From NCBI GenBank assembly GCA_051872765.1, contig JBJEED010000091.1, forward strand, positions 17,878 through 81,877: a DNA stretch of 64,000 bases, read 5' to 3'. Origin of the DNA: Bacilli bacterium (GTDB lineage Bacteria; Bacillota_I; Bacilli_A; RF39; UBA660). This document shows, one piece after another, positions 30,669 to 59,502 of the stretch. The position numbers and the translations under genes were made by a program. Under the pieces are notes generated by a model. The model searched no databases and was not told the DNA's origin. It saw only the letters and a program-made list of their open reading frames with translations. Position 1 is the stretch's first letter; every line of letters begins with the position of its first letter.

Positions 30669-31232
30669 ATGAAAAAGCAAAGAAACACACAAATGCTGGT
30701 TATTGCAGTCTTAGCAATTGCGGTATTGACAATGTCAGTAGGTTTTGCGGCATTTACTCAAAGATTAGATATTAATAGTAATACTACAGTTGGTGTGTCA
30801 ACTTGGAATGTTAAATTTTTAACTGATAGTTTCACAGTAACTGATGGAAGCGTTAATGTAGATAGTGGTAACATAGTAATTACAGGTACATCTGTCACAT
30901 ATGAGGTTAAGTTATCTAAGCCTGGAGATTTTTATGAATTTACTATTAATGTTAAAAATTCAGGTACATTTAATGCTAACTTAGTTGGAATTACTTTAAG
31001 TTCTTTAACTGAGGCACAATCTAAATATTTAACTCACAAATTAACATATGATGGTGTAGAGTATACTCAAACAACATCTGGATTATCAAAAACATTAAAT
31101 GCAACTGATGGTGTTGCTAGTGTTAAAGTTCGTGTGGAATATGTTGCACCAGAAGATCCAAATGATTTACCACAGGAAGAAGTTCGTATACCTTTAACTG
31201 CATCTCTTTCATATGAACAAAAACCTGATTAG
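30669..31232 (+). CDS. TasA/camelysin-like secreted protein with SipW-cognate signal peptide
   Basis: N-terminus ...LTMSVGFAAFTQ matches the SipW-cognate class (TasA ...GGGTWAAFND); KLSKPGDFYEFTINVKNSG parallels TasA NLKPGD...FQFENNGS. A TTGACT-17-TATAAT promoter lies at about 30580-30608. Confidence 0.6.
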   Translation: MKKQRNTQMLVIAVLAIAVLTMSVGFAAFTQRLDINSNTTVGVSTWNVKFLTDSFTVTDGSVNVDSGNIVITGTSVTYEVKLSKPGDFYEFTINVKNSGTFNANLVGITLSSLTEAQSKYLTHKLTYDGVEYTQTTSGLSKTLNATDGVASVKVRVEYVAPEDPNDLPQEEVRIPLTASLSYEQKPD

Positions 31233-31286
31233 AATAATTTATAAAAATTATGTTTGTTAAATTGATAAATAACAAATATATAATTA

Positions 31287-32414
31287 GTGGGTAAAAATAT
31301 GAAAAAAAATATATTGACATTTTATATATGTAATATAATAATTATAGCCTTAATTGTATTATTTAATAATAAGAATTATAGTATTCTATTATGGATTTTA
31401 TTAACTATCTTTTTATTTTTTAAGTGTGGTTTTCCTAAAGATAAAAATTATTTAAAATATAATACAATTCAAATTGTAATAATTAGTATATTCTCATATT
31501 TTTTAATTACTTATAGTCTTGGTTTAATTACGGGATTTAGTAAAAATTTTTTTGATTTAAATATTAAATCGATTATTATGAATATGCTATATCCTTTTAC
31601 TTTGATTACTTGTCAAGAACTTATTCGATATATTTATGCTAAAAATTGTGTAGATGATATAAAGCCATATATTATGCTTACTTTAGTATATATTTTTTTA
31701 GAAATTTTTACTCAAGTTAATGGATATAATTTTTACAATTTTGAAATATTGTTTAAGTTTATATGTTTAGTAGTATTAAAAAGTATTTCTCATGAAATTC
31801 TATATAGTTATATTACTTATAAGATTAGTTTTATACCTACATTAATTATGAAACTAACATTTGGTTTATATATATACATTATACCTATATTTCCAAATTT
31901 AGGAGAATATTTAATGTCTCTTTTTGGAATATTATATCCGGCTTTGGTTTATGTAATGATATATAAAACTATTCAATCTTATGATAAAAGTAGTAAATAT
32001 GTGACTTCAATAAAGAAAAAATATTTGCTATATCCTGTAATTTTATTTTTATGCATAATTGCAGTACTTACATCAGGTATTGGAAAATATCAAATGATTG
32101 CAATTGGATCTGGTAGTATGGAACCAATATATAAGCGTGGTGATGCGGTAATCTTTACTAAGATAAAATCACTTGAAGAAGTGAAAATTGGTTCCATTAT
32201 AGCATTTACTAAAAATAATATACTAATAACACACAGAGTGGTAAATATTGAATATAAAAATGGTGATTATCAATTTATCACAAAAGGGGATAATAATAAA
32301 GATATTGACATTGGAACTGTTAGTGGCAGTAATGTTAAAGGAATTGTGATACATAAGATTCCTTATATTGGATATCCAACAATATGGATTAATGAAAAAC
32401 TAGGTAATATATAA
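31287..32414 (+). CDS. sipW: SipW-type (ER/archaeal-type) signal peptidase I fused to an approximately 250-aa N-terminal polytopic membrane domain
   Basis: C-terminal catalytic domain has IGSGSMEP (catalytic Ser), ITHRV (His) and KGDNN. The N-terminal half has about 7 predicted TM helices. Confidence 0.7.
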   Translation: MGKNMKKNILTFYICNIIIIALIVLFNNKNYSILLWILLTIFLFFKCGFPKDKNYLKYNTIQIVIISIFSYFLITYSLGLITGFSKNFFDLNIKSIIMNMLYPFTLITCQELIRYIYAKNCVDDIKPYIMLTLVYIFLEIFTQVNGYNFYNFEILFKFICLVVLKSISHEILYSYITYKISFIPTLIMKLTFGLYIYIIPIFPNLGEYLMSLFGILYPALVYVMIYKTIQSYDKSSKYVTSIKKKYLLYPVILFLCIIAVLTSGIGKYQMIAIGSGSMEPIYKRGDAVIFTKIKSLEEVKIGSIIAFTKNNILITHRVVNIEYKNGDYQFITKGDNNKDIDIGTVSGSNVKGIVIHKIPYIGYPTIWINEKLGNI

Positions 32415-32436
32415 AAAGAATAAGTGTGGTGATAAT

Positions 32437-33522
32437 ATGAAAAATGATGATAATTCTTTGTTTATGAGAAAAATTTATTATTTACTCATTGTTTTTTCAA
32501 TTATCATTTTAAGTATATGCTCTTATTTTTATATAAGAATGGGATTAGATAATAAGGTAAAAAATGTTTTAGATTACGAAAGTAGTAGTGATATAAATTA
32601 TAAAGTATATTTAAAGAAAAATAACTTTTTTAATGAAGAATATTTAACTATGAATAAAACTTATATTGCAAGTTTAATTGATCATTTAGATGTTATTTTT
32701 ACATATAATCTTAAATATAGTGAACTTGTATCTGGAAAGTATAATTATTATGTAAAAGCTACTATTTTAGCTGATAAAGATGCATCTAGTAATACAAATT
32801 ATTGGTCTAAATCTTATATTTTAACAGAACCAGAAACTATTGAATTTAGTAAAATTAATAATTATAATATCACCACTAGCGTAATAGTTGATTATCAGAA
32901 ATATAGTGATTTGCTTAAAGAATTTAGAAAAGAATATGGATTATCTATCACTGGTTTATTAAAATTAGAACTTATTGTTGAAAGTGAGACAAAAAGTGAG
33001 TCTATTGAAAATGTTGCTAATATAAATTCTTCTTCTGAATTAACTATTCCTCTTACTGAGCAAGCAATTGAATTATCTATTAATGCTGAAAATGATAGTA
33101 ATTCTGGAAGCATAGTAGAAGAGGTTGTATTAGATAATATTAAATATAAAATATTTTTAGTGCTTGGTACTATTTTAGGAATTTTAGCAATCATATTACT
33201 TGGAATATTTATTTACGAATTAATAATGTTATATCAAAGTAAAAGTAAATATTCGATAGAACTTAAAAAAATAATGTCTTCATATGATAGTATAATTGTA
33301 AATGTTAGTAGTATGCCTAATTTTACTAAATATAAAGTTATTAACGTACTTTCATTTGATGAGTTAATTGATGCTCATAGTGAAGTAAGAATGCCAATTA
33401 ATTATTATGAAGAGAAGCCTGGATGTAAAAGTGTTTTTGTACTTATTAATGGTGATATTGTCTGGATGTATACATTGTTAGATGAAAATTATAGAAAAAG
33501 AATTTTAAAAAAGAAGTCATAA
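32437..33522 (+). CDS. Hypothetical bitopic membrane protein in the matrix operon
   Basis: TM at the N-terminus and near residue 235; no family recognised. Confidence 0.45.
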   Translation: MKNDDNSLFMRKIYYLLIVFSIIILSICSYFYIRMGLDNKVKNVLDYESSSDINYKVYLKKNNFFNEEYLTMNKTYIASLIDHLDVIFTYNLKYSELVSGKYNYYVKATILADKDASSNTNYWSKSYILTEPETIEFSKINNYNITTSVIVDYQKYSDLLKEFRKEYGLSITGLLKLELIVESETKSESIENVANINSSSELTIPLTEQAIELSINAENDSNSGSIVEEVVLDNIKYKIFLVLGTILGILAIILLGIFIYELIMLYQSKSKYSIELKKIMSSYDSIIVNVSSMPNFTKYKVINVLSFDELIDAHSEVRMPINYYEEKPGCKSVFVLINGDIVWMYTLLDENYRKRILKKKS

Positions 33523-33560
33523 TTATTTATAATATAATAGAAAAGGAAAAGGAAAATCAA

Positions 33561-35900
33561 ATGTTAAAAAATCGAAATGTTATTATATATATATTTGTTT
33601 TACTAATTATTTCTTTTATGAGTGTAGGGTATGCATACTATGGACAATTGCTAGAGTTTTCTGGAAATATTAATTTAAAGCCAGATGGTAAATTTCGTAT
33701 AGATAATATAATACTTACGGATACTTCTAATGTTATAAGTAGTGTTCCACCAATTATTACAGATAATACAATTGAGTTTAATATAAGCTTTGGTGGTACT
33801 GAAAATGAGTATTATGCAATATATACAGCTGACTTCATAAATGAAAGTAGCTATAGTTATACATATAATTCTTTTAATTTTACGCCAATTGTTACCGCGA
33901 GTGGTGATGGAAGTGGACAATTATCTTTTGAAGTTAGTAATATTAATGATGGAGATGTAATTTCTCCTGGAGAGATTTTAACGATTACGTTAAAATTGAT
34001 TTTAGATGTAAGTGATTCTGAACAAACATATGATATAAATGCCAAGAGTGATGTTATATTGAATTATAATGAAAAAGGTTCTATTTTTACTAGTGTATCA
34101 CCATTATCTGTAGATTTAACTGGTACTAATGAATTAGCTTTAATTAATTTAGAGGTTATGAACACATATGGTAGAAATATTACTTTTAATATGAAATCTA
34201 GTAATAATAATTTTTCTTTAGTAAATAGTGATGGAACAGATTTAGGAAGTTTTACTATTTTAGCAAATAGTGTAGATGATTATCAAATATATTTGAAAAA
34301 GACAGATAATAGCGTGTTTTATGATTCTTCTGAGACTACAATATTAATATTACAATGTGGTACTTTAGGAAACTATAATACTAGTAAGATAACAGTTTCT
34401 GTTGATAAGTCAGAGTTAAGTGATACTAGTATTCCTGAAATTGGTGAAATTAGTTTTACTATAAATAATAATGAAGGACAGGCTGATCTTAATTGGAGTA
34501 GATTAGATAGTGGGGGCACTAGTATTATTGGTTATACAATATTACTTTATAATTCTACGAATGATACCTTAGTAAATACTTATAATACTAATAGTGACTT
34601 GACAAGTTATAGTATTACAGGTCTTGAAGAAGGAAGTTATTATGTTAAAATATATGGAACAGATCAAGCTGGAAATAATGGAAGTGGATATGTAAATGAT
34701 GCTACAACTAGTACAATTTATTGTCGTCAATCTTCTACTGTTGCTTTAAAATGGATATTTAATGTTACTAATAATTTAACTTATTTGACTTCTTCAGGTG
34801 CTAGTACTGCTTCATTAGGAAGTACATATACTGCAACATTATCGGTTTCAGGAAATGTAAGTTTGCCAACTTCTATTACAGTTACTATGAATGGTGTTAC
34901 ACTAGTAAATGGTACAGATTATACATATAGTAGTAGTACAGGACAAATATCTATTCCTAATGTAAATGGAGATATTACCATTACAGCTAGAGGAAGTGGC
35001 GTATGTTTAATTGAAGGAACAAAGATTAGTTTAGCTGATGGAAGTACTAAAAACATTGAAAATATAAGATATGATGATTTACTTCTTGTTTGGAGTTATG
35101 AAGAGGGGCGTATGGTATATGAATATCCTATTTGGATAGAAAAAGAACATAAAGCGCAATCTTATCAATTAACAAAATTCTCATCAGGAGATGAGTTAAA
35201 AACAATAGGATATCATGGCATATATAATATGGACCTTAATAGATTTGTTTCAGTTGATAATAGAGAAGAATTTGATGTTGGTACTAATGTTGCTATTATG
35301 AATGATGATAAAACAGGTTTTATATCTACTAGTGTAGTTAGTATAGAATATGTGTATGAAGAAGTAAATTATTATCATGTGGTTTCAACTAGATATTATA
35401 ATATAATTGCTAATAATATTTTAACAACTGATGGAACAGTAATATTATCTAATTTATATGGATTTGATGATAACATTATGTGGTTAAATAGAAATCAAGT
35501 AATTAATGATAAAAATAATCTTTATGATTATATAGAATTTAATGATATAATGCCATATTATATGTTTTCTGGCCTTAGAGCTAGTGAAGGTAAGTATTTA
35601 GCTAATTTAGGTTTTTTGAGTAAAGAAACATTTAAATATTATTTACTTCAAAATCAAATGAATAAAGAAATGTTGTTACCGCCAACTGTAAATAAAAATG
35701 GTATAAGACAATGGGTTGTAAAAACAAGTTTAGGATATGAAAGATTAATAGATGAGGGAAGTTATTTTTATTTAGATAATTCAAATACTTTAGGTAAAAA
35801 GATTTTATATTGGTATGATATGTCTACAGGAGTAAAATACAAACCTAATGAAAGAGTTAAAATATGGTATGGTACTTATTTTGAGGCTATATATGAATAA
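33561..35900 (+). CDS. Large secreted protein: SipW-cognate signal/TasA-like N-terminus, Fn3 domain, internal Hint (intein-like) domain
   Basis: N-terminus ...FMSVGYAYYGQ...NLKPDG; Fn3-like LNWSRLDSGGTSIIGYTILLYN...YYVKIYGTD; Hint block A CLIEGTKISLADGSTKNIENI...DLLLV at residue 482 and block F-like YYNIIANNILTTDG (about nt 35004-35435). Confidence 0.6.
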   Translation: MLKNRNVIIYIFVLLIISFMSVGYAYYGQLLEFSGNINLKPDGKFRIDNIILTDTSNVISSVPPIITDNTIEFNISFGGTENEYYAIYTADFINESSYSYTYNSFNFTPIVTASGDGSGQLSFEVSNINDGDVISPGEILTITLKLILDVSDSEQTYDINAKSDVILNYNEKGSIFTSVSPLSVDLTGTNELALINLEVMNTYGRNITFNMKSSNNNFSLVNSDGTDLGSFTILANSVDDYQIYLKKTDNSVFYDSSETTILILQCGTLGNYNTSKITVSVDKSELSDTSIPEIGEISFTINNNEGQADLNWSRLDSGGTSIIGYTILLYNSTNDTLVNTYNTNSDLTSYSITGLEEGSYYVKIYGTDQAGNNGSGYVNDATTSTIYCRQSSTVALKWIFNVTNNLTYLTSSGASTASLGSTYTATLSVSGNVSLPTSITVTMNGVTLVNGTDYTYSSSTGQISIPNVNGDITITARGSGVCLIEGTKISLADGSTKNIENIRYDDLLLVWSYEEGRMVYEYPIWIEKEHKAQSYQLTKFSSGDELKTIGYHGIYNMDLNRFVSVDNREEFDVGTNVAIMNDDKTGFISTSVVSIEYVYEEVNYYHVVSTRYYNIIANNILTTDGTVILSNLYGFDDNIMWLNRNQVINDKNNLYDYIEFNDIMPYYMFSGLRASEGKYLANLGFLSKETFKYYLLQNQMNKEMLLPPTVNKNGIRQWVVKTSLGYERLIDEGSYFYLDNSNTLGKKILYWYDMSTGVKYKPNERVKIWYGTYFEAIYE

Positions 35901-48530: not shown

Positions 48531-49019
48531 ATGTATAAATATAAAAAGAATATTATAAGAGTTTTAACTTGTATTTATGTAATTTTATCAATAATAGAAT
48601 TTATTAAATATTTTTTTGTGAATAGTAATTTATTTGGTTTAATATATTTAATTATAAATATATTTATTATATTTTTATTAGTACCGGTAGCTTATAATTA
48701 CAATAAATACTATTCTATACCTAGAATTAGTAAGTTAATAATGGTAATAATATTGGGTATATTTAGTAGTTATATATTGAATAATATTGTAATTAATAAT
48801 ATGAGCTATACTGATGCTTCTATTATATATAATAATAAAATTTTTATAACAAAAAATATATTAAAAGTGATAGTTTACTTTGCACTAACTATATTTACAA
48901 TATTTGAATTTAAACTAGATAAATTAATAAAGAATATAACGGATAATAACAAAACGATTAATAAAAGTACTAAACGAAAAAAAATCAAACATAGACAAAA
49001 TAAAAAGAAAATGGTATAA
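48531..49019 (+). CDS. Hypothetical small polytopic membrane protein
   Basis: Four hydrophobic segments, basic C-terminal tail. Confidence 0.4.
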   Translation: MYKYKKNIIRVLTCIYVILSIIEFIKYFFVNSNLFGLIYLIINIFIIFLLVPVAYNYNKYYSIPRISKLIMVIILGIFSSYILNNIVINNMSYTDASIIYNNKIFITKNILKVIVYFALTIFTIFEFKLDKLIKNITDNNKTINKSTKRKKIKHRQNKKKMV

Positions 49020-49035
49020 TATGAAAAAATTTAAG

Positions 49036-49052
49036 TTTTTTTTTGGGGGGGG
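49036..49052 (+). repeat. Homopolymeric tract T9 followed by G8 at the start of an ORFan gene
   Basis: T-run 49036-49044 and G-run 49045-49052. A G8 run is highly atypical for this genome. The tract sits 4 nt upstream of ATG 49057 and inside the frame opened by ATG 49021. Confidence 0.8.
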
Positions 49053-49056
49053 TAAA

Positions 49057-49713
49057 ATGAAAATTGTTGTAATTGAAAGCAAAAAAGATTTAGACAGTAT
49101 AAGAAATATTGATGATGATAGAATATTATTATTTTTTGTAAAAGATATTAAATTTGATGGGGAATTTGAACCTATTAATAAAGAAAATTGTGAGATAATT
49201 ATATTTGGAAATAATTGTACTTTAGAAAATATTGTTATAAATAAACCTAATACTAATGATATTGGTTTGTTTTCAAAAGTTAAAAGTATGAATGTTAGAG
49301 ATCTAAAAATATTAAATTCACATATTAAATCTGGTGAGGTTTGTGGTTCATTAGTAGGAAGAGTAGATAATTCAATTAAGGCAAAAAATGTTACTGTTTA
49401 TGCTAATATTGATTCTGATAGTATCATTGGAGGAATTGTAGGTTCTACAAGAACAGCGAATATTTCAAATTGTAGTATTAGTGGTAATTTTTCAGCAAGA
49501 GGTATAATAGGGGGGTTAATTGGTATATGTAATTCTTTTGAAGGAAATAAAAATAACATAGATTCATTTTCTTTTAATACTGATCCAAACTATACCACAT
49601 GTACTATACATTTGGATGTAGGTTATTTAAGTGAAAGAGAAGAAAAAAATCTAACAATGAAATTAATACCTTTAATGAAAGATACAACTTTATCGGAGTA
49701 TTACATAAAGTAA
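49057..49713 (+). CDS. Hypothetical protein with Gly-rich GGIVG/GGLIG repeats; the alternative start ATG 49021 reads through the T9G8 tract
   Basis: ORF of 218-230 aa; an internal G6 run lies at 49510-49515. Confidence 0.5.
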   Translation: MKIVVIESKKDLDSIRNIDDDRILLFFVKDIKFDGEFEPINKENCEIIIFGNNCTLENIVINKPNTNDIGLFSKVKSMNVRDLKILNSHIKSGEVCGSLVGRVDNSIKAKNVTVYANIDSDSIIGGIVGSTRTANISNCSISGNFSARGIIGGLIGICNSFEGNKNNIDSFSFNTDPNYTTCTIHLDVGYLSEREEKNLTMKLIPLMKDTTLSEYYIK

Positions 49714-49885
49714 TACTCTCTTTTAATTGGCTATAAAATATTAGTATTTTTTATAAAAGTATTGATTCTTTATAAAAAAAATGTATAATAATATCTCGAA
49801 ATATCAATTAAAATAATAGGTTAGTTGACAAAAGGCATATTTTATGGTATAATATGCACAATTAACAAAAGGGGGAAAGGTTGTT

Positions 49886-51145
49886 ATGAATGAAAGTTTA
49901 TTATTAAATATGAGAAAGTTCAAAAATGAACTAAAAAATGAAAGATTAATTTTAGTTGAGCAATATAATCAAGCTACTACTGTTGCTGAGAAGAATGAGA
50001 TTGTTGATAGAGTAGAAGTACTAGATGCTATTTTTAGAGAAGTGGTTGCTGCTATTGTTGCTAAAGATGAAAGTAAATTAGAAGAATTAGCTGAAAAATA
50101 TGGTGTTAAATACGATAAAGACGAAAAAGAAACTAATTCTAAATTACCAGAAGAAAAGGTAAATGATAAAAAATCATTTTTTAAACAATTACCAATATGT
50201 TTACTAGCTGGTATTGCAGGTGGATTACTTGGACGTTGCGCTTATGACTTATTAAATGCTAATACTGCTATTGAAGAAGATATGGATGAAGATTTAACTT
50301 CTGATAAAAAAGTTAGTAAAAATGAAAAACCATTTGAAGTATATGGTGAGTTTAATGATTCTTCAAATGAAAAACAAATTCAAAATAGAGCAGTTTGGTT
50401 CTATGATAATTATGTTTCTAAAAATTCAGGTGTTAATCAAATCAGTACAAATGATCTTATGAATGTAATTAGAATGACAAATGGAGAATTTAAATTAGAT
50501 GATAGTGGAAATATTACTTATAATGCCATGGATATTATAGATGCTGCAAATGATATTCACACTATTGCAAATTATGCTTCATTTTCTCAAAATAAAAATA
50601 ATTTAACATTTGTGCCATATGCTCCATTATTTGAAGATGGGTCATTAGCACAACAAGGCGCTACTATATTGGATGATGCATATAAAAAAGTAGTAGATGC
50701 AATTAAAGCTGATGATGTAGAAGCATTTAAAGAAGCAGCAAAGCAATGGGGAATTGCAGTTGTAAATATTTTTGAACAAAATGATTTTACTGGTAAATAT
50801 CCAAGTGTATTTCAAATGGAGCCAGCTCAAGCATATCAATTATATCAAGTGATGTATGCTACATATGGAACAACAATTTTTGAATATGGACAATCAAGAA
50901 ATGTAAATATTTGTATTCCATATTGTACTGATTATAATAGTTCAGAATTAGTAGAAACTCCATTATCTGAAATTATTTATCAGTTAAATGAAGTTCCAAC
51001 AGATTGGGTTGCTAAGAGAAGTGGACATGAAAGTGAATATGCAGAAAATAACTTGTCATTACCAGAAGAGTTGTATTTAGCATCTAAGAATTATTATGAT
51101 AGTAAATATGAGTTAGAGATTGGTAAAAGTAGAGTTTTAAAATAA
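49886..51145 (+). CDS. Hypothetical protein with a central TM segment; composition richer in Ala/Val/Gly than its neighbours
   Basis: Preceded by a perfect sigma-A promoter, TTGACA-17-TATAAT (about 49826-49854), and a strong RBS AAAGGGGGAAAGG. Confidence 0.5.
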   Translation: MNESLLLNMRKFKNELKNERLILVEQYNQATTVAEKNEIVDRVEVLDAIFREVVAAIVAKDESKLEELAEKYGVKYDKDEKETNSKLPEEKVNDKKSFFKQLPICLLAGIAGGLLGRCAYDLLNANTAIEEDMDEDLTSDKKVSKNEKPFEVYGEFNDSSNEKQIQNRAVWFYDNYVSKNSGVNQISTNDLMNVIRMTNGEFKLDDSGNITYNAMDIIDAANDIHTIANYASFSQNKNNLTFVPYAPLFEDGSLAQQGATILDDAYKKVVDAIKADDVEAFKEAAKQWGIAVVNIFEQNDFTGKYPSVFQMEPAQAYQLYQVMYATYGTTIFEYGQSRNVNICIPYCTDYNSSELVETPLSEIIYQLNEVPTDWVAKRSGHESEYAENNLSLPEELYLASKNYYDSKYELEIGKSRVLK

Positions 51146-51167
51146 TATATTAAAGGGGGATATTAAA

Positions 51168-52562
51168 ATGTATAGTAATAAAAGAAATGGTTTTAGTATT
51201 TTAGATATTCTTGTTAAAATTATATTCATTGCGTTGTTTATATTTATTCTAATATGGTTATTTAAAAAGAATGTGCCAAATATGACTGCATTTTATAGTA
51301 ATGTGTTTAGAGAAAATATAAAGTATATGCAAGAAGCAGGTGAAAGTTATTTTACTGATGATAAAATGCCTCAAAATGTTGGTGATACAGTTAAAATTAC
51401 TTTAGCTGAAATGTTTGAAAAGAAATTAATATTACCATTTGTAGATGAAGATGGAAATTCTTGTAATCAATATGAATCTTATGTAAGTATTACTAAAGAA
51501 GTTGATGAAAGTTATTCTTTAAAAACAAACTTAGTATGTAATAAAGAACAGGATTATACAATTAAAGTACTTGGATGCCATAACTATTGTAAAGATAGTG
51601 AATGCTCTAAAACTTGTAGTATTGAAAAAATAACATCTTATCAATATAAAAAATTAGCAACTTCAACTAAGACTGTATATAGTTGTCCAAGTGGCTATAA
51701 ATTAGATGGTAAGTATTGTATTAAAACAATACTTGCTGATACAACATCAGCGAAAGTAACAACTGTTTCTACAACTAAAGTAGAAGTGCCTGCTATTGTA
51801 AAAAAAGTTGAGGGAGAAAAGACACTTTTAAATACTATTAAGACTAGTGTTCGTGAGTATGTAGATAGAATTGAAACAACAACACCAGGTCAAACTACTA
51901 CAACAACTATTCCATATACTTGTACAAAAGAACAAACTACTAGACAATGTTCAACAACTTATACACAAAATGCATATTCTTGTAATTGTACTACTCATGT
52001 AGGTCCAACAGGAAAACCAAGTACTACTTGTAGCACATGTTATGAAACTGTACCAGTTGAAACTTGTAAGGATGTAACTTCTACATATCAAGATACATGC
52101 TATAAGAGTGTGACATCTACTACTCCAGATGTAACTACTTATTCTTGTCCAGTTGATACAATTGAAGAAGGATCTGGAGAAAACTTAAAATGTTATAAGG
52201 TTGTTAAAAAATATAGTTGTCCAGCAGAAGCAAATTTAAAAGAGGGAAGTGGATCTAGTCTTAAATGTTATAAAGTCAAGGAAGGATCAGTTACATATAC
52301 TTGTCCTGATAGTACTTATACATTAAGTGCAGATAAGTGTTATAAGTATATTAATGAAGAAAGTACACAATATATTTGTAAAGATGGTTATAAATTAGAA
52401 GGAACTTTATGTAAGAAATATACTACTGAAAAAATTAAAGCAAATTCCAAGAAAGTAACTACTAAATATTATAAATATCAATGGAGTACTAAGACATCAA
52501 TTCCAGGATGGACTAAGACTGGTAAAACTAAAACTATAAATGGAAAAGAGATTTGTAAATAA
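51168..52562 (+). CDS. Cys-rich secreted/surface protein with a type IV pilin-like N-terminus
   Basis: N-terminus MYSNKRNGFSILDILVKIIFIALFIF resembles a class III (prepilin) signal, with Asp at +5. More than 30 Cys occur in recurring C-x(10-14)-C-Y-K units (CPSGYKLDGKYC, CPVDTIEEGSGENLKCYKV, CPAEANLKEGSGSSLKCYKV, and others). Confidence 0.5.
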   Translation: MYSNKRNGFSILDILVKIIFIALFIFILIWLFKKNVPNMTAFYSNVFRENIKYMQEAGESYFTDDKMPQNVGDTVKITLAEMFEKKLILPFVDEDGNSCNQYESYVSITKEVDESYSLKTNLVCNKEQDYTIKVLGCHNYCKDSECSKTCSIEKITSYQYKKLATSTKTVYSCPSGYKLDGKYCIKTILADTTSAKVTTVSTTKVEVPAIVKKVEGEKTLLNTIKTSVREYVDRIETTTPGQTTTTTIPYTCTKEQTTRQCSTTYTQNAYSCNCTTHVGPTGKPSTTCSTCYETVPVETCKDVTSTYQDTCYKSVTSTTPDVTTYSCPVDTIEEGSGENLKCYKVVKKYSCPAEANLKEGSGSSLKCYKVKEGSVTYTCPDSTYTLSADKCYKYINEESTQYICKDGYKLEGTLCKKYTTEKIKANSKKVTTKYYKYQWSTKTSIPGWTKTGKTKTINGKEICK

Positions 52563-52624
52563 ATCTCTCTTTTTTTTTCATTTTGTTGTATAATATTAAG
52601 TAGATTTTTAAATTGAGGTGTATT

Positions 52625-53071
52625 ATGAAAAAAAATAAAAATATAATTATTATTATTAGTATACTATTTGGATTTGTATTATTTTTTATATTGTCATTTA
52701 TGATATCTGGTAATACTAGTGAACCACTAAAAGAAAATGTAAATATTGATGAATGGTATAGTGAAACTCAAAAGGATGAATATGTCATTACTGTAATCGG
52801 ACAAACTACTTGTCCAAACTGTAAAGCTTATAAACCTATTATTTCAAGTTTATCTACTAAATATAAACTTAACTTATATTTCTTTGAAAGTGATATGTTA
52901 GAAGAAGAAGAATATAATAAATTAATTAGTTCATATGAGGAATTTGACCATGAATATGTTCCATTTACGGCTATTACTAAAAATGGTAAAGTATTAACTA
53001 CGACTGTTGGGAAAAAAGAGAAAAATGAACTAATTGAATTTTTAAAAGAATATGGAGTTATTAAAAACTAG
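52625..53071 (+). CDS. Membrane-anchored thioredoxin-fold thiol-disulfide oxidoreductase (CPNC active site)
   Basis: N-terminal TM, then VITVIGQTTCPNCKAY, a Trx-like CxxC context. Start taken at ATG 52625. Confidence 0.6.
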   Translation: MKKNKNIIIIISILFGFVLFFILSFMISGNTSEPLKENVNIDEWYSETQKDEYVITVIGQTTCPNCKAYKPIISSLSTKYKLNLYFFESDMLEEEEYNKLISSYEEFDHEYVPFTAITKNGKVLTTTVGKKEKNELIEFLKEYGVIKN

Positions 53072-53157
53072 TAATCTAGTTTTTTTTAATGTATAATTTA
53101 AGTTGTAAGTAATTATTTTTATTACTTAGGAAAGCGAGGTATTAAAAATCGTATATT

Positions 53158-54261
53158 ATGAAAAAATTATTATCGTATTCAATAATTATTTGTTTTATAT
53201 TAATATTTGTTAAATACAGATATAGTGATTATGATATTAAATATGAAATTGGTGATTATAAAATAAGAACTAGTTATAGTGATAAAAGATTATATTATGA
53301 AATTACTGATGGTAATAAAACATATAATTTTGATGTATATATGAGAAGAAGTCTAAGTAAAAAAAATATTACAAATATTAAAACTATTGAGGGAGATAAT
53401 TTTAATTGTATATATCCTGTAGTAAAAGATATAGAAACTTATCCTTTATGTTATATAGGGGATGAGTTTACTGATTATAATTTAATTGATTCAGAATTAC
53501 TTGAGTCGTATAAAAAAGAAACAATTAACATTGAAAAATCCGAAAAAGATTTTATTTATTATAATAATTTAGATAATAGTGAGTATATTGCTTTATGGAA
53601 TTATAAAGGTTATATAGTAATGAATGGAAAAACTTATAATAATATTGATTTATTCAAAAAAGATAAATATGATAATACTCTTTCTTATTTAATAAAAGAT
53701 ACTTTGTATATAGCTGATTATGATCAAGAGCATGAATATAATAAATTAATAACTTTGAATTTAAAAACACTTAAAAAATCAGAAATTATTCTTAATAAAA
53801 AGATAGATTTTGATTCATATTTTGTGGGTCATATTAATAAAAAATTATACATATATGATAATAAAAATAGTATATTATATGAAATAGATATTAGAAATGG
53901 AGAAACTGAAATAAAAGGAAATAATGAAATTGGTTTTGTGAAATATAATAATGGTAAGTTTATTGTATGTAGTAAATCTGAATATAAAATAAACAAAATA
54001 AAATATGATATAAATGAATCAATATACATATATACGAACAATAATGGTTTATTTAAAACAATAAAAGAAAATAGTAAGTTAATACAGAAAATTACAAATG
54101 ATGATGTAAAACTTATTAAAGAAAATAATAATAAAATATATTATTTAGATGTAGATAGTTTTTATATGTATACTCCTAATAATGGAAATGAATTAATATT
54201 TTATAATTATGAATTATCTTTTAATAATGAAAATACAATATTCGTATATTTAAATAACTAA
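53158..54261 (+). CDS. Hypothetical N-terminally anchored, beta-rich N/Y/K-rich protein
   Basis: Signal/TM at the N-terminus; no family recognised. Confidence 0.4.
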   Translation: MKKLLSYSIIICFILIFVKYRYSDYDIKYEIGDYKIRTSYSDKRLYYEITDGNKTYNFDVYMRRSLSKKNITNIKTIEGDNFNCIYPVVKDIETYPLCYIGDEFTDYNLIDSELLESYKKETINIEKSEKDFIYYNNLDNSEYIALWNYKGYIVMNGKTYNNIDLFKKDKYDNTLSYLIKDTLYIADYDQEHEYNKLITLNLKTLKKSEIILNKKIDFDSYFVGHINKKLYIYDNKNSILYEIDIRNGETEIKGNNEIGFVKYNNGKFIVCSKSEYKINKIKYDINESIYIYTNNNGLFKTIKENSKLIQKITNDDVKLIKENNNKIYYLDVDSFYMYTPNNGNELIFYNYELSFNNENTIFVYLNN

Positions 54262-54289
54262 ATTTAAAAAAATACATATAATACTTTAG

Positions 54290-54547
54290 GTGATTAAAGT
54301 GTTAGATTATGAAATTAAAAATAGTATAGAAAGTCCTTTTTATAGTATATATGAAATTAAAAAAGGAGATACATTATATAAGATATCTAAAGAATATAAT
54401 GTAAATACTAAGTTACTTGCTGAATTAAATGGTCTTGATTTAGATGATTATATTTATCCAGGTCAAGGTCTATTGGTTCCTAAAAAAGATGTAAGTTATT
54501 ATATTACTAAAGATGGGGATACGATTTTTGTGGGGAATAATGAGTAA
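54290..54547 (+). pseudogene. 5' portion of a split tandem-LysM gene: intact LysM1, with LysM2 interrupted after ...YYITKDGDT by the recombinase element
   Basis: LysM1 is YEIKKGDTLYKISKEYNVNTKLLAELNGLDLDDYIYPGQGLLVP. The ORF then reaches the start of a second LysM (VSYYITKDGDT) and diverges into element sequence (IFVGNNE*). Confidence 0.6.
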
Positions 54548-54599
54548 AATTATTGATTTATTTAGAAAAAAGTTTATAATATAAAGCAAGATAGGGGAT

Positions 54600-54980
54600 T
54601 TGCTAATGGAAGAGGATGAAAAAATTAGTCTTGAAATGTCTAATAACTTGAACTATGCTTTATCAAATTTAAAACAAGCTATAGAAGAGATAAATGTTTT
54701 AGAAGATAAGACATACTTTGAATTGACTAAACAACAAATAATTGATTATTTAAATTATGTTTATGCAAACATAAAGGACTGGAAAAAGAGTTATGAAACA
54801 AAAAATTATAAAATAATTACAGATAAATATAAAGAAATAGAATCTATTATTTCACAATTAGAATTTTGTTTAGTTGAATTTGATAATAAGTTTCATATAG
54901 AAGGCATATCATATTCTATATTCCAAATTGGCAAAATTATATCTAATTTAGAGAAAGAGAGTGATAAAAATGGCAGATGA
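54600..54980 (+). CDS. Hypothetical helical protein (cargo of the element)
   Basis: 126-aa ORF, no family recognised. Confidence 0.4.
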   Translation: MLMEEDEKISLEMSNNLNYALSNLKQAIEEINVLEDKTYFELTKQQIIDYLNYVYANIKDWKKSYETKNYKIITDKYKEIESIISQLEFCLVEFDNKFHIEGISYSIFQIGKIISNLEKESDKNGR

Positions 54981-55521
54981 TAAACCAATAATAAAAGCAA
55001 CTACTCCAAATAGTAGTAAATATGATGCTAAAATAGATGTGTACACATCAGATCCTAAAGGTCCTCATGAATCAATTCATATAGCAGTCGATAGCGATTC
55101 AAAGTCAGCACATATTATAGACACAACAAATGGCGGTACAGAACATACTGATGTTAAATGTTATTTAACTTCGGCTTGTATGAAATATTTTCAAGAAAAA
55201 TTTGATGATAATTGTTATGAATTAACAATACTAAGATGGTTTAGAGATAATTTTGTTTCAAAGGAAGATATACAACATTACTATGAAGTAGCACCAATTA
55301 TTGTTGAAACAATTAATAAAGAAGAAAAATCTGATATTATTTATGATTATATTTACGATAATATAGTAGATTATTGTGTTGAACAAATTGAACAAGGAAA
55401 CTATGAGGCAGCATATAACAGATATAAAAATAGTGTTTTAGTATTAGAAGAACAATTTGCAAAACCAGCATTAACAGATAGATTTATAAAAACTTTAAAA
55501 TTAAAAACTAATAATCAGTAA
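54961..55521 (+). CDS. Hypothetical protein (cargo of the element)
   Basis: 186-aa ORF, followed by the hairpin AATCATCCT...AGGATGATT. Confidence 0.4.
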   Translation: MIKMADDKPIIKATTPNSSKYDAKIDVYTSDPKGPHESIHIAVDSDSKSAHIIDTTNGGTEHTDVKCYLTSACMKYFQEKFDDNCYELTILRWFRDNFVSKEDIQHYYEVAPIIVETINKEEKSDIIYDYIYDNIVDYCVEQIEQGNYEAAYNRYKNSVLVLEEQFAKPALTDRFIKTLKLKTNNQ

Positions 55522-55946
55522 AAATTAATCATCCTATAAAATTTAGTGAAAACTAGAAATTAGGATGATTTTTTGTGCTATAAATTATAGTTAATATTAG
55601 ACTTATCCTATATAGCATCCTACTTTGTAGGATGAATTTCGTAAGTACGAAATAAGCATGGTGCATATACAAGCCCTTATTTCATAAGGAAAAGTGAGTA
55701 TATATGCACCATTTTCTTATCCTGCTATTCGATATTTTAATAGATTCTTAACTATTTTAGAATGATAGACAAAACTTTCCATTGTAAATGACTTGATTCT
55801 TATATTTTAAGAGAGGTATCATACATGCAAAAGGAGATGATGTTTATGAATATGAAGGAGGACTATGATATTAAGTAATATTATTAGGTATGTCTATAAC
55901 ACACCTAATAATATTACTAAAACAAAATTTAAAGCCATAGAATTTA

Positions 55947-56144
55947 TTGGGGGTATTAAACTCTATGGTTAAATACAAAGTTAATTTGAAATTTAAAGAA
56001 AATGGAAAATCTTTAAATGAAACAATAACTAATGTATTAAAAATTGAACTAGAAAAAAGAACAAATACGACTTGTAATATTTTAAAAAAGGAGTTACCAT
56101 TCAAGCATACTCATTATTCCCAAATGGAAGGGAGTAGGAATTGA
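55947..56144 (+). CDS. Small ORF immediately upstream of, and overlapping, the recombinase start; possible ribbon-helix-helix-like or recombination directionality factor
   Basis: KYKVNLKF...SLNETITNVLKIELEKR has a beta-strand then helix pattern; speculative. Confidence 0.2.
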   Translation: MGVLNSMVKYKVNLKFKENGKSLNETITNVLKIELEKRTNTTCNILKKELPFKHTHYSQMEGSRN

Positions 56145-57709
56145 TGATAGGGAATAGTAGTTTTAAAGCAGGAATATATATAAGATTATCAAGAGATGAT
56201 GGAAATATTGAATCTGATAGTATTGTTAGTCAAAGAAGTTTACTTAATCAGTATGTTAAAGAAAATAACTACAATATAATAGATGAATATGTTGATGATG
56301 GATTTACTGGAACTAATTTTGAAAGACCATCATTTAAAAGAATGATTAGTGACATTGAAATTGGCAAAATTAATATGATTATTACTAAAGATATGTCTAG
56401 ATTAGGTAGAGATTATATAGGTACAGGAGAACTCATTGAAAAGTATTTTCCAAATAAAAATGTTAGGTATATTGCTATTAACGATGGTATTGATACATTT
56501 ATAGATAATACAAATAATGATATAGCACCTTTTAAAGCTATAATGAATGATATGTATGCTAAAGATATTTCTAAAAAAGTTAAAACAAGTTTGCATTCTA
56601 GAATGAAAGAAGGATTGTATGTATCTGGTAGATGCCCATTTGGTTATATGAAAGATCCAAATAATAAAAATCATTTAGTCATAAATGAAGAACAAGCAGA
56701 AGTAGTTAAATTAATATTTGATTTGGCGCTTAAAGGTAATACTTACCACTATATTGCTCAAGAATTAACTAAAAGAAAAATTAAAACACCAGCATCCTAT
56801 TATAACTATGTTTGGAATACTAAGTGTATAAATACAAATTGTATTTCACAAGAATATGGTGTATGGGTTGATACAACAATTAAATCAATTTTAACTAATA
56901 GAATTTATGTAGGTGATGTAGTGCAAGGTAAAACTAAAAAGATTAATTATAAACTTAAAAAGACGGTTAAAAATAATCCAAATGATTACATTGTAGTTGA
57001 AAATATACATGAACCAATAATTGATAGAGATACATTTAATTATGTTCAAACTTTATTACCTAAAAATGTTAAAAGACCAGAAAAGAAACGATTTTATTTA
57101 TTAGATGGACTTTTATATTGCGGAGATTGTAAACATCGTATAACTATTAGATATCAAACTAAAACTGACAGAAGTTATACAACTTGTGATTATTATAGAA
57201 CATATTCAAAATATCATGTTTGTACAACTCATACAAATAATTATGAAGTATTAGAAAGTGTAATTTTAGAAAACATAAAAGAAATATGTAAAAGGTATTT
57301 AGATAAAAATAAAATAAAAGATTCTATTGGCAATATAAAATTTGAAGATAATACTTTAAAAATAAAAAAACAAATAGAAAGTTTAGAAATAGCTAATAAT
57401 AAATTAATAGAAAGTCTAGATAAGACTTATATGGATAGGTTAAAAGGAATTATTGATGAGGAACAATACATAAGAATAAGTGAAAATCTAAAACAAGAAA
57501 TAGCTAATAATAAATTAAGTATTGATAGTCTTAAAAATGAACAAATAAATGAAAATAAAGTAGATAATAAACAAATAGAAAAATATATAAATGAATTTTT
57601 ATCATTAGAAAATTCAACTAGAGAATTAATAATTAATTTAGTAGAAAAGATTTATATCTATCAAGATAAAACGATAGATATTATATTTACATTTAAAAAT
57701 GTTACATAA
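56141..57709 (+). CDS. Large serine recombinase (resolvase/invertase catalytic domain, recombinase domain, zinc-ribbon domain, coiled-coil)
   Basis: N-terminus GIYIRLSRDD...SIVSQRSLL (catalytic Ser), ...DDGFTGTNFERP...ITKDMSRLGRD; Cys cluster CGDC...C...C in the C-terminal half; 522 aa. Confidence 0.9.
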   Translation: MMIGNSSFKAGIYIRLSRDDGNIESDSIVSQRSLLNQYVKENNYNIIDEYVDDGFTGTNFERPSFKRMISDIEIGKINMIITKDMSRLGRDYIGTGELIEKYFPNKNVRYIAINDGIDTFIDNTNNDIAPFKAIMNDMYAKDISKKVKTSLHSRMKEGLYVSGRCPFGYMKDPNNKNHLVINEEQAEVVKLIFDLALKGNTYHYIAQELTKRKIKTPASYYNYVWNTKCINTNCISQEYGVWVDTTIKSILTNRIYVGDVVQGKTKKINYKLKKTVKNNPNDYIVVENIHEPIIDRDTFNYVQTLLPKNVKRPEKKRFYLLDGLLYCGDCKHRITIRYQTKTDRSYTTCDYYRTYSKYHVCTTHTNNYEVLESVILENIKEICKRYLDKNKIKDSIGNIKFEDNTLKIKKQIESLEIANNKLIESLDKTYMDRLKGIIDEEQYIRISENLKQEIANNKLSIDSLKNEQINENKVDNKQIEKYINEFLSLENSTRELIINLVEKIYIYQDKTIDIIFTFKNVT

Positions 57710-57837
57710 AAAATGTATCTGGGGATACATTATATAATGTTAGTAAGACATTTGGTATTAATCAGGAAGATTTAGTAAGGCAAAATAAAACAATATATTT
57801 ACTTCCAGAACAAATGATTTTTTATAAAAGAGATTAG
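57697..57837 (+). pseudogene. 3' portion of the split LysM gene (remainder of LysM2)
   Basis: The frame overlapping the last recombinase codons encodes KCYIKNVSGDTLYNVSKTFGINQEDLVRQNKTIYLLPEQMIFYKRD*. This is a LysM domain parallel to LysM1 of ORF 54290; it begins at the second TGGGGATAC copy. Confidence 0.6.
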
Positions 57838-57894
57838 AATATCTAGTCTTTTTTTTTTATAAATGATATAATTACTATAATAGGAGTTGGTTAG

Positions 57895-59502
57895 ATGATA
57901 ATAAAAAAGCCATATGCTTTTTTAATTAAGAATTTTAGGGTCATTCATGGACTTATTTTTGCTATGCTTCTTTATTTGACTTTTAAATTATTTTCTATAT
58001 ATTCTTTTTTTAGTGAATATGTATCTAACCATTATTATATAAACACTGGAACATTAGAAAGTGAATATATTAATTTTATAATGTTTATAGTAGCAAGTTT
58101 AGTTATTATAGTATCTATTATAATATTTTATCTATTATCTGTGAAAAGAAAAGAAAATAAATCTTACATGATAATAGTAATATACAATGTATTACTTATA
58201 ATTTATTTTTTTGTGATGTTTAGAGTATTTCAAGATTTAAATATAAATTCCTTGGATACTGAAACTGTCAGATTTTATAGAGATATTTCAATGATTGCAC
58301 TAATACCAGAGGCTATATTTATGTTAATTATGCTTGGTAGAACACTTGGATTTAATATAAAACAATTTGATTTTAAAAAAGATTTAGAAGAAATAAATAT
58401 AGATAGTAGTGACAATGAGGAAATAGAGCTATCTCTTGGTAATGATACATATAAATTTAAAAGATATATAAGAAAGTTATTTAGACTAGGTAAATATTTT
58501 GTTTTAGAAAATAGATTATTTGTTATATGTGTTAGCTCAGCAATAGTTTTAATACTATGCGTTACAATATTCATGAATATAAACGTTTATGGTACAAATT
58601 ATGAAGAAAATACTCAAATAGTGGCTAATACAGTATGGTATAAAGTTAATTCTAGTTATTTAACGACAACTGATATTAATAATAAAGTAATTAATAAAGG
58701 AAAAACTTATTTGATTGTAAAAGTAGAGGCTGAAAATAAATTATCAAAAACATATACTCTCTCAAGAGAAACATTTAGATTAGAATTTGAAAATGATATA
58801 TTATTTCCAATATTTACATTAAGTAACAGTTTTATTGATTTTGGTGAACTTTTTGTACCAAGAGAATTAAAGGCTAATGAAAATAGGGAATTTGTTGTAG
58901 TATATGAATTAGATACAAAAAAAATATCATCATCTTCATTTACCTTTAAAATTAAAAATTATAATGAAAAGGCATTAGGAGATATACAAGCTCCTTATAA
59001 GGATATTATATTAAAACCAAAAAATATAAATGATATACAAATAGAAGAAGAATATAATATACCATCTTCCTTAGATTTTAAGAAAACTATTTTAAATAAT
59101 TCTAAATTGGAAATAAGTGAATATAATATTAATGATACTTATATTGAAACATATGAACAATGTGAAAATGAAATATGTAAAAATATTAAGTATATAGTTG
59201 CTCCAAATAATATTGGTAAAGGAGAATTAACTATATTAAAATTAAAATCAGATCTGCAGTTAGATGATAATCTATATTTAAAAAAGTATATAAGTATTCC
59301 ATCTGAATTTTTAGAAAAATATGCATATTTAGAATATAATTATTTAGGAACGAAATATATTTCTTATTTAGAAGCAATACCAGTTAAATATAATAAAGAT
59401 AAATATTCTTATTTACAAGTGACAAAAAATATCAAATATTCAAATGATATTAAATTAATTATATTAATTAGAGGAATAAAATACACAATTAACTTGAAAT
59501 AA
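57895..59502 (+). CDS. Hypothetical membrane protein (four N-terminal TM helices plus large extracytoplasmic domain)
   Basis: 535-aa ORF; no family recognised. Confidence 0.45.
   Translation: MIIKKPYAFLIKNFRVIHGLIFAMLLYLTFKLFSIYSFFSEYVSNHYYINTGTLESEYINFIMFIVASLVIIVSIIIFYLLSVKRKENKSYMIIVIYNVLLIIYFFVMFRVFQDLNINSLDTETVRFYRDISMIALIPEAIFMLIMLGRTLGFNIKQFDFKKDLEEINIDSSDNEEIELSLGNDTYKFKRYIRKLFRLGKYFVLENRLFVICVSSAIVLILCVTIFMNINVYGTNYEENTQIVANTVWYKVNSSYLTTTDINNKVINKGKTYLIVKVEAENKLSKTYTLSRETFRLEFENDILFPIFTLSNSFIDFGELFVPRELKANENREFVVVYELDTKKISSSSFTFKIKNYNEKALGDIQAPYKDIILKPKNINDIQIEEEYNIPSSLDFKKTILNNSKLEISEYNINDTYIETYEQCENEICKNIKYIVAPNNIGKGELTILKLKSDLQLDDNLYLKKYISIPSEFLEKYAYLEYNYLGTKYISYLEAIPVKYNKDKYSYLQVTKNIKYSNDIKLIILIRGIKYTINLK

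Follow-up and report, generated by a model that had tools for sequence, protein, structure and literature searches.

A small serine recombinase element that splits a LysM gene in a Bacilli bacterium belongs to a putatively mobile family that appears to target LysM-coding DNA

In the skin element of sigK (recombinase SpoIVCA in Bacillus subtilis; CD1231 together with the recombination directionality factor (RDF) CD1234 in Clostridioides difficile) and in SPbeta of spsM (SprA with SprB), the gene for a large serine recombinase (LSR) marks one end, and precise excision reconstitutes a gene of the mother cell. These elements measure roughly 15-135 kb. In SPbeta and in the skin element of C. difficile, the LSR is constitutive and a small RDF sets the timing (PMC5595907). 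A further element, gin, lies in gerE of Bacillus cereus ATCC 10987; with the LSR GirC and the RDF GirX, it comprises 31 genes, has three recombinases and uses gerE as its one dedicated target (Abe et al. 2017, PMC5595907). Here we analyzed a stretch of 64,000 nucleotides (hereafter the window) of a Bacilli bacterium (GTDB lineage Bacteria; Bacillota_I; Bacilli_A; RF39; UBA660; assembly GCA_051872765.1, contig JBJEED010000091.1, positions 17,878 to 81,877 of the forward strand), in which a small gene with two LysM domains (the 2xLysM gene) is split by a 3206-bp element. As in skin and SPbeta, the LSR lies at one end and excision in silico rebuilds the gene. We conclude, with a probability of about 0.85, that positions 54517-57722 of the window hold an intact, integrated small mobile genomic island that is moved by its LSR and directed to chromosomal DNA coding for the beginning of a LysM domain (Y-x-V-x-x-G-D-T/S-L-W/Y-x-I-A).

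The closest characterized recombinases, although distant, are TnpX of Tn4451/Tn4453 and TndX of Tn5397, from clostridia and enterococci. Elements of the Tn4451/Tn5397 type excise as circles, and TnpX and TndX use a GA core with a looser choice of target. Tn4451 encodes a mobilization protein and Tn5397 a conjugation module. A third group for comparison is the staphylococcal cassette chromosome (SCC; CcrA/CcrB or CcrC), which enters the 3' end of a single gene, rlmH, and leaves that gene active.

The 2xLysM gene is interrupted at 54515/57721. Its 5' open reading frame (ORF), which ends at 54547, encodes LysM1 and the first residues of LysM2 (...VSYYITKDGDT), followed by seven foreign residues (IFVGNNE*); this tail and its stop codon are provided by the left end of the element. 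The remainder of LysM2 (LYNVSK...FYKRD*) is found at 57729-57837, where the GDT frame restarts 11 nt past the LSR stop codon. Fusion of the two parts at GG in silico restores the reading frame and yields a 110-aa protein that has two LysM domains by Pfam scoring and is 95% identical to the uninterrupted homolog P0001. In total, more than 460 uninterrupted homologs of 105-113 aa were found, the closest being 95% identical, and the 3' LysM fragment is uncorrupted (90-95% like its orthologs). Six contigs (L001-L006, L001 being GCA_029007115.1) have an intact 110-aa gene with the same neighbors and an empty site. The collinear alignment of L001 and the window (94% nucleotide identity) shows a single large difference, namely that L001 lacks window positions 54527-57719. 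Because of these intact homologs and the collinear empty-site relative, the split is genuine and was caused by an insertion.

An earlier reading of this region, made from the letters of the DNA and their translations (the sequence-only reading), had already proposed that an LSR element splits a LysM gene and had suggested looking for an uninterrupted ortholog in related genomes. The re-read sequence, the Pfam domains, the intact orthologs and the empty site all bear out the split, and the ortholog is present at the same place in L001-L006. The same orthologs, and the resemblance of the 3' fragment to them, also answer its worry that no intact 2xLysM gene might exist anywhere or that the downstream LysM frame might be unconserved. 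Its figure of 113 aa for the rebuilt protein needs revision: the most likely start is GTG 54299, 5 nt past the ribosome-binding site (RBS) AGGTGA, in agreement with orthologs that begin with MLDYE, and therefore the intact protein has 110 aa and the truncated product 82 aa with a single LysM domain.

We also examined where recombination may have occurred. The 9-mer TGGGGATAC is present at 54514-54522 and again at 57720-57728 in identical codon phase, as the sequence-only reading had stated, and recombination there rebuilds in silico the conserved 2xLysM ORF. That the whole 9-mer is a shared core did not hold. When the left and right junctions (attL and attR) of 40 distinct pairs were compared (38 species-level loci, the window and L007/L009), only GG (positions 0/1) and GA (positions 3/4) were identical throughout, and positions -1 and +2 differed in about half of the pairs. 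Moreover, in one element found in three targets (L115, L116 and L120), the attL bases that follow GG and the attR bases that precede it are constant, and the host sides vary. From the junction pairs and, independently, from these constant element sides, we infer a crossover within the GG that opens the Gly codon of the LysM motif G-D-T/S. The genuine shared core would then be GG alone, and the rest of the 9-mer would be an arm of the element's own site, attP (GGATAC), that resembles LysM codons. The consensus of attP is ACATAAAAAnTGTATCn-GG-nGATACanTTTTTATGg, with 16-bp inverted repeats and a dyad centered on GG, and that of the host site, attB, is TAtaCnGTnaAAanaGGnGATAcntTaTggagtATtGC, coding DNA for Y-x-V-x-x-G-D-T-L-W-x-I-A at the LysM domain start. 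For the window, the predicted attB is …ACTAAAGAT GG GGATACATTATAT… and the predicted attP is …ACATAAAAAATGTATCT GG GGATACGATTTTTGTGG…. The window element has the features of LSR integrative elements, namely the domain set, a dyad attP with a 2-bp core and an uninterrupted attB.

The LSR most likely starts at ATG 56144, which gives 521 aa and not the 522 aa counted earlier from 56141. The motif YIRLSRDD can be read directly from its sequence, and its homologs are full length (516-522 aa). Its entropy by codon position (0.24/0.15/0.66) indicates purifying selection. The best PHROG match is integrase (E-value 1e-105), and the best NCBIfam models are CcrB and CcrC, far below their cutoffs. The catalytic domain of TnpX is the closest solved relative (E-value 2.4e-28), TndX is 34.5% identical over the full length, and deposited phage genomes match at no more than 34% identity. 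An exact-sequence look-up of the window LSR returned no record.

Three parts are common to the elements of the family: a left end of ~30 bp, variable cargo, and a right-hand core of ~2.2 kb (window 55500-57720) that consists of a hairpin-rich leader, a 59-aa ORF and the LSR. All element genes are co-oriented with the target gene. With folding z-scores of -6.4 (plus strand) and -7.2 (minus strand), the leader is unusually structured. It contains a perfect 16-bp hairpin (55873-55917), kept with few compensatory changes, and a second hairpin of 7-8 bp (55934-55968) whose pairing covers the start codon of the 59-aa ORF. A search of 54200-58000 against Rfam at E-values up to 1 gave no match, so the leader is not a known RNA family. 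A 35-aa ORF (55865-55972) with a strong GGAGG RBS crosses the long hairpin, and its stop codon lies 4 nt past the ATG of the 59-aa ORF; this ORF and leader arrangement could serve translational control or be an origin of transfer (oriT) or a packaging signal. A scan for sigma-70 promoters found promoter-like sites in no excess over shuffled sequences (41 versus 35 ± 6), and a simple terminator scan misses the 55527-55575 hairpin with its long loop; the promoter/terminator scan was not used as evidence.

The 59-aa ORF lies upstream of the LSR in nearly all loci. Its N-terminal half has a coding signature, with entropies of 0.24/0.15/0.43 by codon position in 26 collinear sequences; the idea that it is non-coding, which came from entropy on a gapped alignment, was rejected after the calculation was repeated with these sequences. 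All of its 425 homologs have 54-66 aa and are without a Pfam domain. An AlphaFold2 model of the protein (pLDDT 76) consists of an extended N-terminus and a single helix (residues 17-43), and comparison with PDB sequences gave no meaningful match. By size and position, the 59-aa protein is a candidate RDF or regulator. The coordinates of all features are given in Table 1.

Table 1. Coordinates of the split 2xLysM gene, of the inserted element and of related features (window positions unless a locus is named)
Feature	Location	Strand	Remarks
2xLysM promoter, sigmaK-type bipartite motif	54258..54283	+	C 54258, 16-nt spacer, CATATAATA 54275-54283
5' part of 2xLysM gene	54299..54516	+	GTG start, LysM1, first LysM2 residues, to GG; RBS AGGTGA 54288-54293
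attL crossover dinucleotide GG	54515..54516	+	first two bases of the Gly codon in G-D-T; 40 junction pairs
Element left end = attP right arm (GGATACGATTTTTGTGGGGAATAATGAGTAA)	54517..54547	+	conserved in ~34 loci; consensus nGATACaaTTTTTATGGGGAATAATGAGTAa
Cargo ORF1, 126 aa (124 aa from ATG 54606), helical	54600..54980	+	36% identical to L077 ORF1
Cargo ORF2, 186 aa (183 aa from ATG 54970)	54961..55521	+	variable N-terminus, conserved Cys-motif C-terminal domain
Terminator-like hairpin and T-run after cargo	55527..55575	+	RNA fold; function inferred
Non-coding, hairpin-rich leader (~400 nt)	55576..55964	+	conserved in ~50-75 loci from different species
Conserved 59-aa ORF (MVKYKVNLKFKENGKSLNE.IT.VLKIELEK...)	55965..56144	+	stop overlaps LSR ATG (ATGA)
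Large serine recombinase (LSR), intact, 521 aa	56144..57709	+	Pfam Resolvase (12-158), Recombinase (183-307), Zn_ribbon_recom (320-380)
Element right end = attP left arm (...ACATAAAAAATGTATCT) and attR GG 57721-57722	57695..57722	+	junction comparison
3' part of 2xLysM gene	57721..57837	+	G-D-T-LYNVSKTFGINQEDLVRQNKTIYLLPEQMIFYKRD; stop TAG 57835-57837
Hydrolase_2 gene examples	L007 9353-9775; L009 10557-10979; also L041, L043, L051, L067		

Homologs of the LSR number in the thousands, and more than 120 clusters are 85-92% identical to the window LSR. A scan of one genome per species yielded at least 499 relatives, and the best 80 of them (77-92% identity) were examined; nearly all are from metagenome-assembled genomes of uncultured Bacilli, 'Tenericutes' or Erysipelotrichaceae with 23-30% GC. 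The junction survey covers the 78 loci that hold the LSR C-terminus. The GGNGAY codon pair and a LysM frame follow exactly 11 nt past the LSR stop codon in 56 of the 78, and in another 14, this right end with its LysM frame is displaced downstream by up to ~1.7 kb; no right-end LysM frame was seen in eight loci, mostly at contig ends. Element sizes range from 2.3 to 7.9 kb in 40 loci (median 4.4 kb for the 38 species-level loci). Any LysM repeat may be hit: the insertions affect repeats 1 to 5, in proteins that have two to six of them. Among 32 longer 5' parts, Amidase_3 is present in 20, PG_binding_1 in three, GH25 in two and Peptidase_M23 in one, and several are small all-LysM proteins. In another species (L061), the element occupies the ortholog of the window's 2xLysM gene. 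Judging from these insertions, the target appears to be the LysM motif G-D-T/S and not one gene. In two IMG/VR viral contigs (L096/L097, 7905-11700), a 3.2-kb element with a cassette of the window's type interrupts the LysM-coding portion of a gene for an M23-like endopeptidase; this gene adjoins a holin-like gene within a prophage that has tail genes and a separate endolysin. Because the element sits in a prophage gene, phages could carry these elements between hosts. Full-text searches of an incomplete literature library turned up no paper that connects serine recombinases with LysM target sites, and an LSR element family that targets the LysM motif and is widespread in uncultured gut Bacilli is apparently undescribed.

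The element found in three targets is also informative about mobility. Its LSR (P0130) is identical in the three copies, and the 6.07-kb element is 99.7% identical at the nucleotide level; the copies lie in a LysM gene next to a SpoIID/PG_binding_1 gene, in a small LysM gene next to scpA/scpB and in an Amidase_3-LysM gene. Since a near-identical element is present in three unrelated LysM genes, the family is evidently actively mobile. In L012 (7732-11577, Eubacterium sp. CAG:180), an element of 23.5% GC whose LSR is 92% identical to that of the window is flanked by DNA of 44-50% GC, which makes L012 a clear case, by composition, of cross-lineage transfer. From these comparisons, the family seems to move horizontally both between species and between LysM genes. 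In some loci (L049 11514-13121, L066 4030-5385, L087 and L114), an attP-like joint, with the right end fused to a left end, lies directly past the LSR and is followed by a unit of 1.3-1.7 kb that has cargo and lacks a recombinase, and then by a normal right end and the LysM frame. These look like tandem arrays with non-autonomous, LSR-less mini-elements. In L060 (1-5850), two elements lie within 6 kb in neighboring LysM genes, the right end of the first with its LysM remainder being at ~117-415.

The cargo of the window element had been described as ORFans. This holds in that neither ORF has a match in Pfam or PADLOC; ORF1 has no NCBIfam match either and only a marginal PHROG one (phrog_13401, E-value 0.0099), and ORF2 matches the NCBIfam model CFI_box_CTERM weakly, below the cutoff. 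It does not hold for ORF2, relatives of which recur at 64-78% identity in six other elements (L049, L061, L077, L079 and L096/L097). The C-terminal motif of ORF2 is CYLTSAC...NCYELT.LRWFRD, which in the cassettes reads CYLTSACM..FDDNCYELT.LRWFRDNFVSKEDI..YY. The cassette itself is recurrent (window 54600-55521; L049, L061, L077, L079 and L097): a highly variable small helical protein is followed by an ORF2-type protein, a pattern reminiscent, on sequence grounds, of polymorphic toxin/immunity or defense pairs. Elsewhere in the family, cargo includes DpnII-type restriction-modification, RhuM, AbiEii-like ATPases, AIPR, OLD-type (TOPRIM) nucleases and Fic, as well as HNH, GNAT and class II aminoacyl-tRNA synthetase proteins. 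No relaxase, Mob or conjugation family is among the 25 commonest Pfam families of 105 cargo proteins, which have 41 further families not listed.

Further examination of the region upstream of the 2xLysM gene revealed a bipartite motif. In seven divergent orthologs, CATATAATA is invariant four nt before the RBS, a C 17 nt upstream of it is also invariant, and the spacer varies. The sigmaK consensus of B. subtilis is (A)C-N16/17-CATAnnnTA, which the arrangement C-N16-CATATAATA appears to fit. The composite of CATAnnnTA, RBS and start codon occurs once in the 64-kb window, at the 2xLysM gene. The same arrangement precedes 17 target genes of different architecture, and when these are aligned on CATAnnnTA, the C at -17, which was not in the search pattern, is present in 15 of them; a strict count gives 14 of 44 distinct target 5' parts that have the motif with an in-frame start. 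Across 1.69 Mb of fetched loci, the composite motif occurs 54 times (34 with C at -17), and the 27 distinct downstream proteins include 2xLysM orthologs, Amidase_3(-LysM) proteins, four Hydrolase_2 proteins (CwlJ/SleB-type), and collagen-repeat, 3xLysM, GT2-TPR and Peptidase_C26 proteins. The Amidase_3 genes behind this promoter lack a signal peptide. The mother cell makes CwlJ, BclA-type collagen proteins, CwlC-type amidases and coat glycosyltransferases. We considered that CATAnnnTA might merely be a sigmaA -10 box (TAnnnT); this was rejected as the sole reading, since the flanking C-A and the final A are invariant, the C at -17 is present in 15 of 17 targets and the composite is unique in the window. 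The motif was not found upstream of yabG and yabP.

The window is an origin region (dnaA, dnaN, recF, gyrB, gyrA, dnaX and mfd). Because it encodes SpoVT (MazE and SpoVT_C), the YabG protease, SpoVG, YabP and DivIC, the host is probably a spore-former; SpoIIE (PF07228) was not found at its Bacillus position in the window. Its sigmaK-type promoter makes the 2xLysM gene a probable late gene of the mother cell, for the spore envelope and silent during growth, and many targets of the family, not all, look like late sporulation genes by the same motif.

Several genes near the targets deserve mention. The 2xLysM gene belongs to a conserved, chromosomal same-strand cluster found in at least six lineages. 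In the window (48531-59502) and in L001 and L092-L095, this cluster also encodes proteins of 419, 464, 367 and 535 aa with no family match; the Cys/Thr-rich 464-aa protein has a prepilin-like N-terminal signal (NKRNGFSILDILV…), and a membrane-anchored thioredoxin-like protein adjoins it. It may be a surface or envelope assembly cluster. A 140-aa Hydrolase_2 (CwlJ/SleB-like) gene with the C-N16-CATAnnnTA promoter is often convergent with and adjacent to the Amidase_3-LysM target, which suggests a conserved spore cortex or lysis gene pair. Between yabG and spoVG (window 30669-35900) are genes for a 375-aa SipW-type signal peptidase protein, a DUF5305 protein and a 779-aa protein without a family match.

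Compared with the known systems, the LysM elements resemble gin in several respects: both are non-phage LSR elements in a short gene of the sigmaK regulon (here a sigmaK-type promoter motif only), with a short shared core inside an inverted-repeat att site and restriction-modification genes in the cargo (in gin and in some elements of the LysM family), and both are strain-variable and evidently horizontally transferred. Unlike gin, the LysM elements are only 2.3-7.9 kb in size, have one LSR, use a domain motif in many genes, and showed no sporulation-type promoter in the region searched before the LSR. They differ from skin and SPbeta, which are prophages or derived from prophages with a single fixed target each, in having many targets and no phage genes, and their only candidate RDF is co-transcribed with the LSR. 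With Tn4451 and Tn5397 they share small size and exchangeable cargo; however, their crossover dinucleotide is GG rather than the GA of TnpX and TndX, and the 25 commonest cargo families include no counterpart of the Mob and conjugation functions of those transposons. Like SCC, they are LSR cassettes with variable cargo that occupy a conserved coding-sequence target and may form tandem or composite arrays (here L049 and L066), but in contrast to SCC they enter in the middle of a domain, truncate the protein and use many genes.

In the mechanism that we propose, the attP of the circular element, with its two 16-bp inverted repeats around GG, would pair with a LysM-coding attB, as the junctions suggest, and strands would be exchanged within the GG of its Gly codon. 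As GG is non-palindromic, only one insertion orientation is expected; the cargo, the 59-aa ORF and the LSR would thereby become co-oriented with the target, with the LSR stop codon 11 nt before the crossover. In the window, insertion shortens the 110-aa 2xLysM protein to the 82-aa form with one LysM domain, and the target would be a low-cost landing site because it is probably silent in growing cells. Recombination between attL and attR at GG by the same enzyme, possibly aided by the 59-aa protein, would release a circle of 3206 bp and restore the frame exactly. Spread would be horizontal, with exchangeable cargo that often includes restriction-modification and abortive-infection-type genes. 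We regard the predicted excision as a property of a mobile element rather than as a demonstrated developmental program. Several points weigh against this proposal. The crossover position and the extent of attP were derived from natural junctions, and no transfer function (relaxase, oriT or packaging) was identified for the element. Neither a circular form nor a reconstituted allele of the window strain was found in the collections searched, and the exact rebuilt 110-aa protein has no record in the protein collection searched. The attP junction pattern had 0 matches in viral contigs and one 1.4-kb match in Joint Genome Institute (JGI) metagenomes, which may be a tandem array or a circle and is uninformative on excision. 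As for the promoter, the sigmaK consensus is that of B. subtilis, so the likeness is to a motif of a model organism. In the samples with the window strain (runs SRR30616808-851), assembly yielded the occupied allele (8 contigs); this, together with the absent rebuilt protein, fits stable integration in bulk, whether excision is developmentally timed or not.

The sequence-only reading went further and took the arrangement for a sporulation intervening element that is retained in the germ line and excised in the mother cell, where it would rebuild a sigmaK-dependent 2xLysM gene on time, as in skin/sigK, SPbeta/spsM and gin/gerE. Such timed excision would add to the mobile-island explanation, and the two are not mutually exclusive; we consider it plausible but less likely than not. 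In agreement with it, the gene is rebuilt in silico, the host has spoVT, yabG and yabP, and the C-N16-CATAnnnTA promoter is present at the 2xLysM gene and at least 14-17 other targets as well as at CwlJ/SleB-like, collagen-repeat, GT2 and Amidase_3 genes. Because all elements lie in the orientation of their targets, the target promoter reads into them; a small conserved ORF of RDF size is translationally coupled to the LSR, and the occupied state of the assembled allele fits germ-line retention. There is also a non-phage precedent with restriction-modification cargo, gin (PMC5595907). However, the family has no dedicated target, and a comparison of 70 elements showed no conserved sigmaK- or sigmaE-like -10 element in the 700 nt upstream of the LSR; in the window, the terminator-like hairpin parts the cargo from the core module. 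Members of the family also occupy a prophage lysis gene and targets that lack the promoter motif, and the insertions are recent and independent, as seen from the use of any repeat, the three targets of one element and the empty site in the relative with 94% identity. The nearest characterized recombinases, TnpX and TndX, are transposon enzymes, which act without developmental control, and truncated multi-LysM proteins may stay functional, which would weaken selection for timed excision.

Two other explanations would deny the element either its mobility or its independence from phages. If the insertion were a fossil, the element would be immobile and the LysM gene a pseudogene in the window strain; we hold this to be extremely improbable. 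The lack of an excised allele or circle of this strain in the collections searched would be expected of a fossil, but the LSR is full length with a strong signature of purifying selection, both element ends conform to the consensus of the family, the 3' LysM fragment remains intact and close to its orthologs, and near-identical elements occupy several targets. Alternatively, the element might be a prophage remnant or satellite, with the LSR as a phage integrase and the LysM gene as an endolysin-type phage gene. This seems very unlikely, and we rejected a prophage origin. The integrase annotation of the best PHROG match and two close relatives within a prophage-like viral contig speak for it; yet elements of 2.3-7.9 kb contain no phage structural, replication or lysis genes, those two were the only close relatives among 2.9 million viral contigs and are themselves insertions into a phage gene, deposited phage genomes match at no more than 34% identity, and the 2xLysM gene resides in a conserved chromosomal cluster of at least six lineages.

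For the mobile island that we favor, an LSR lineage aimed at a protein-domain motif would find many landing sites per genome and could use distant hosts (23-50% GC), and the genes so used appear to be ones that growing cells leave silent. Little-known gut Bacilli with small genomes harbor the family in abundance, and there it is probably a significant route for the exchange of defense genes. For genome engineering, the forty natural junction pairs supply a directly testable prediction: a palindromic attP of 34 bp with a GG core, a consensus for attB and, as a candidate accessory factor, the 59-aa protein. The C-N16-CATAnnnTA promoter, in turn, sketches for uncultured lineages a regulon of late mother-cell genes. 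Should excision turn out to be timed in the mother cell, programmed gene reconstitution would be far commoner and simpler than the Bacillus and Clostridioides examples suggest. We put forward only tentatively that these elements of 2-8 kb may be the smallest and most widespread class of sporulation-coupled intervening elements, in which one LSR lineage, by recognizing the LysM motif as such, would have entered many late mother-cell genes (CwlC-like amidases and small LysM envelope proteins) in hundreds of uncultured gut spore-formers, and which would carry defense genes in the germ line and be excised in the terminally differentiated mother cell, where the target genes would be restored.

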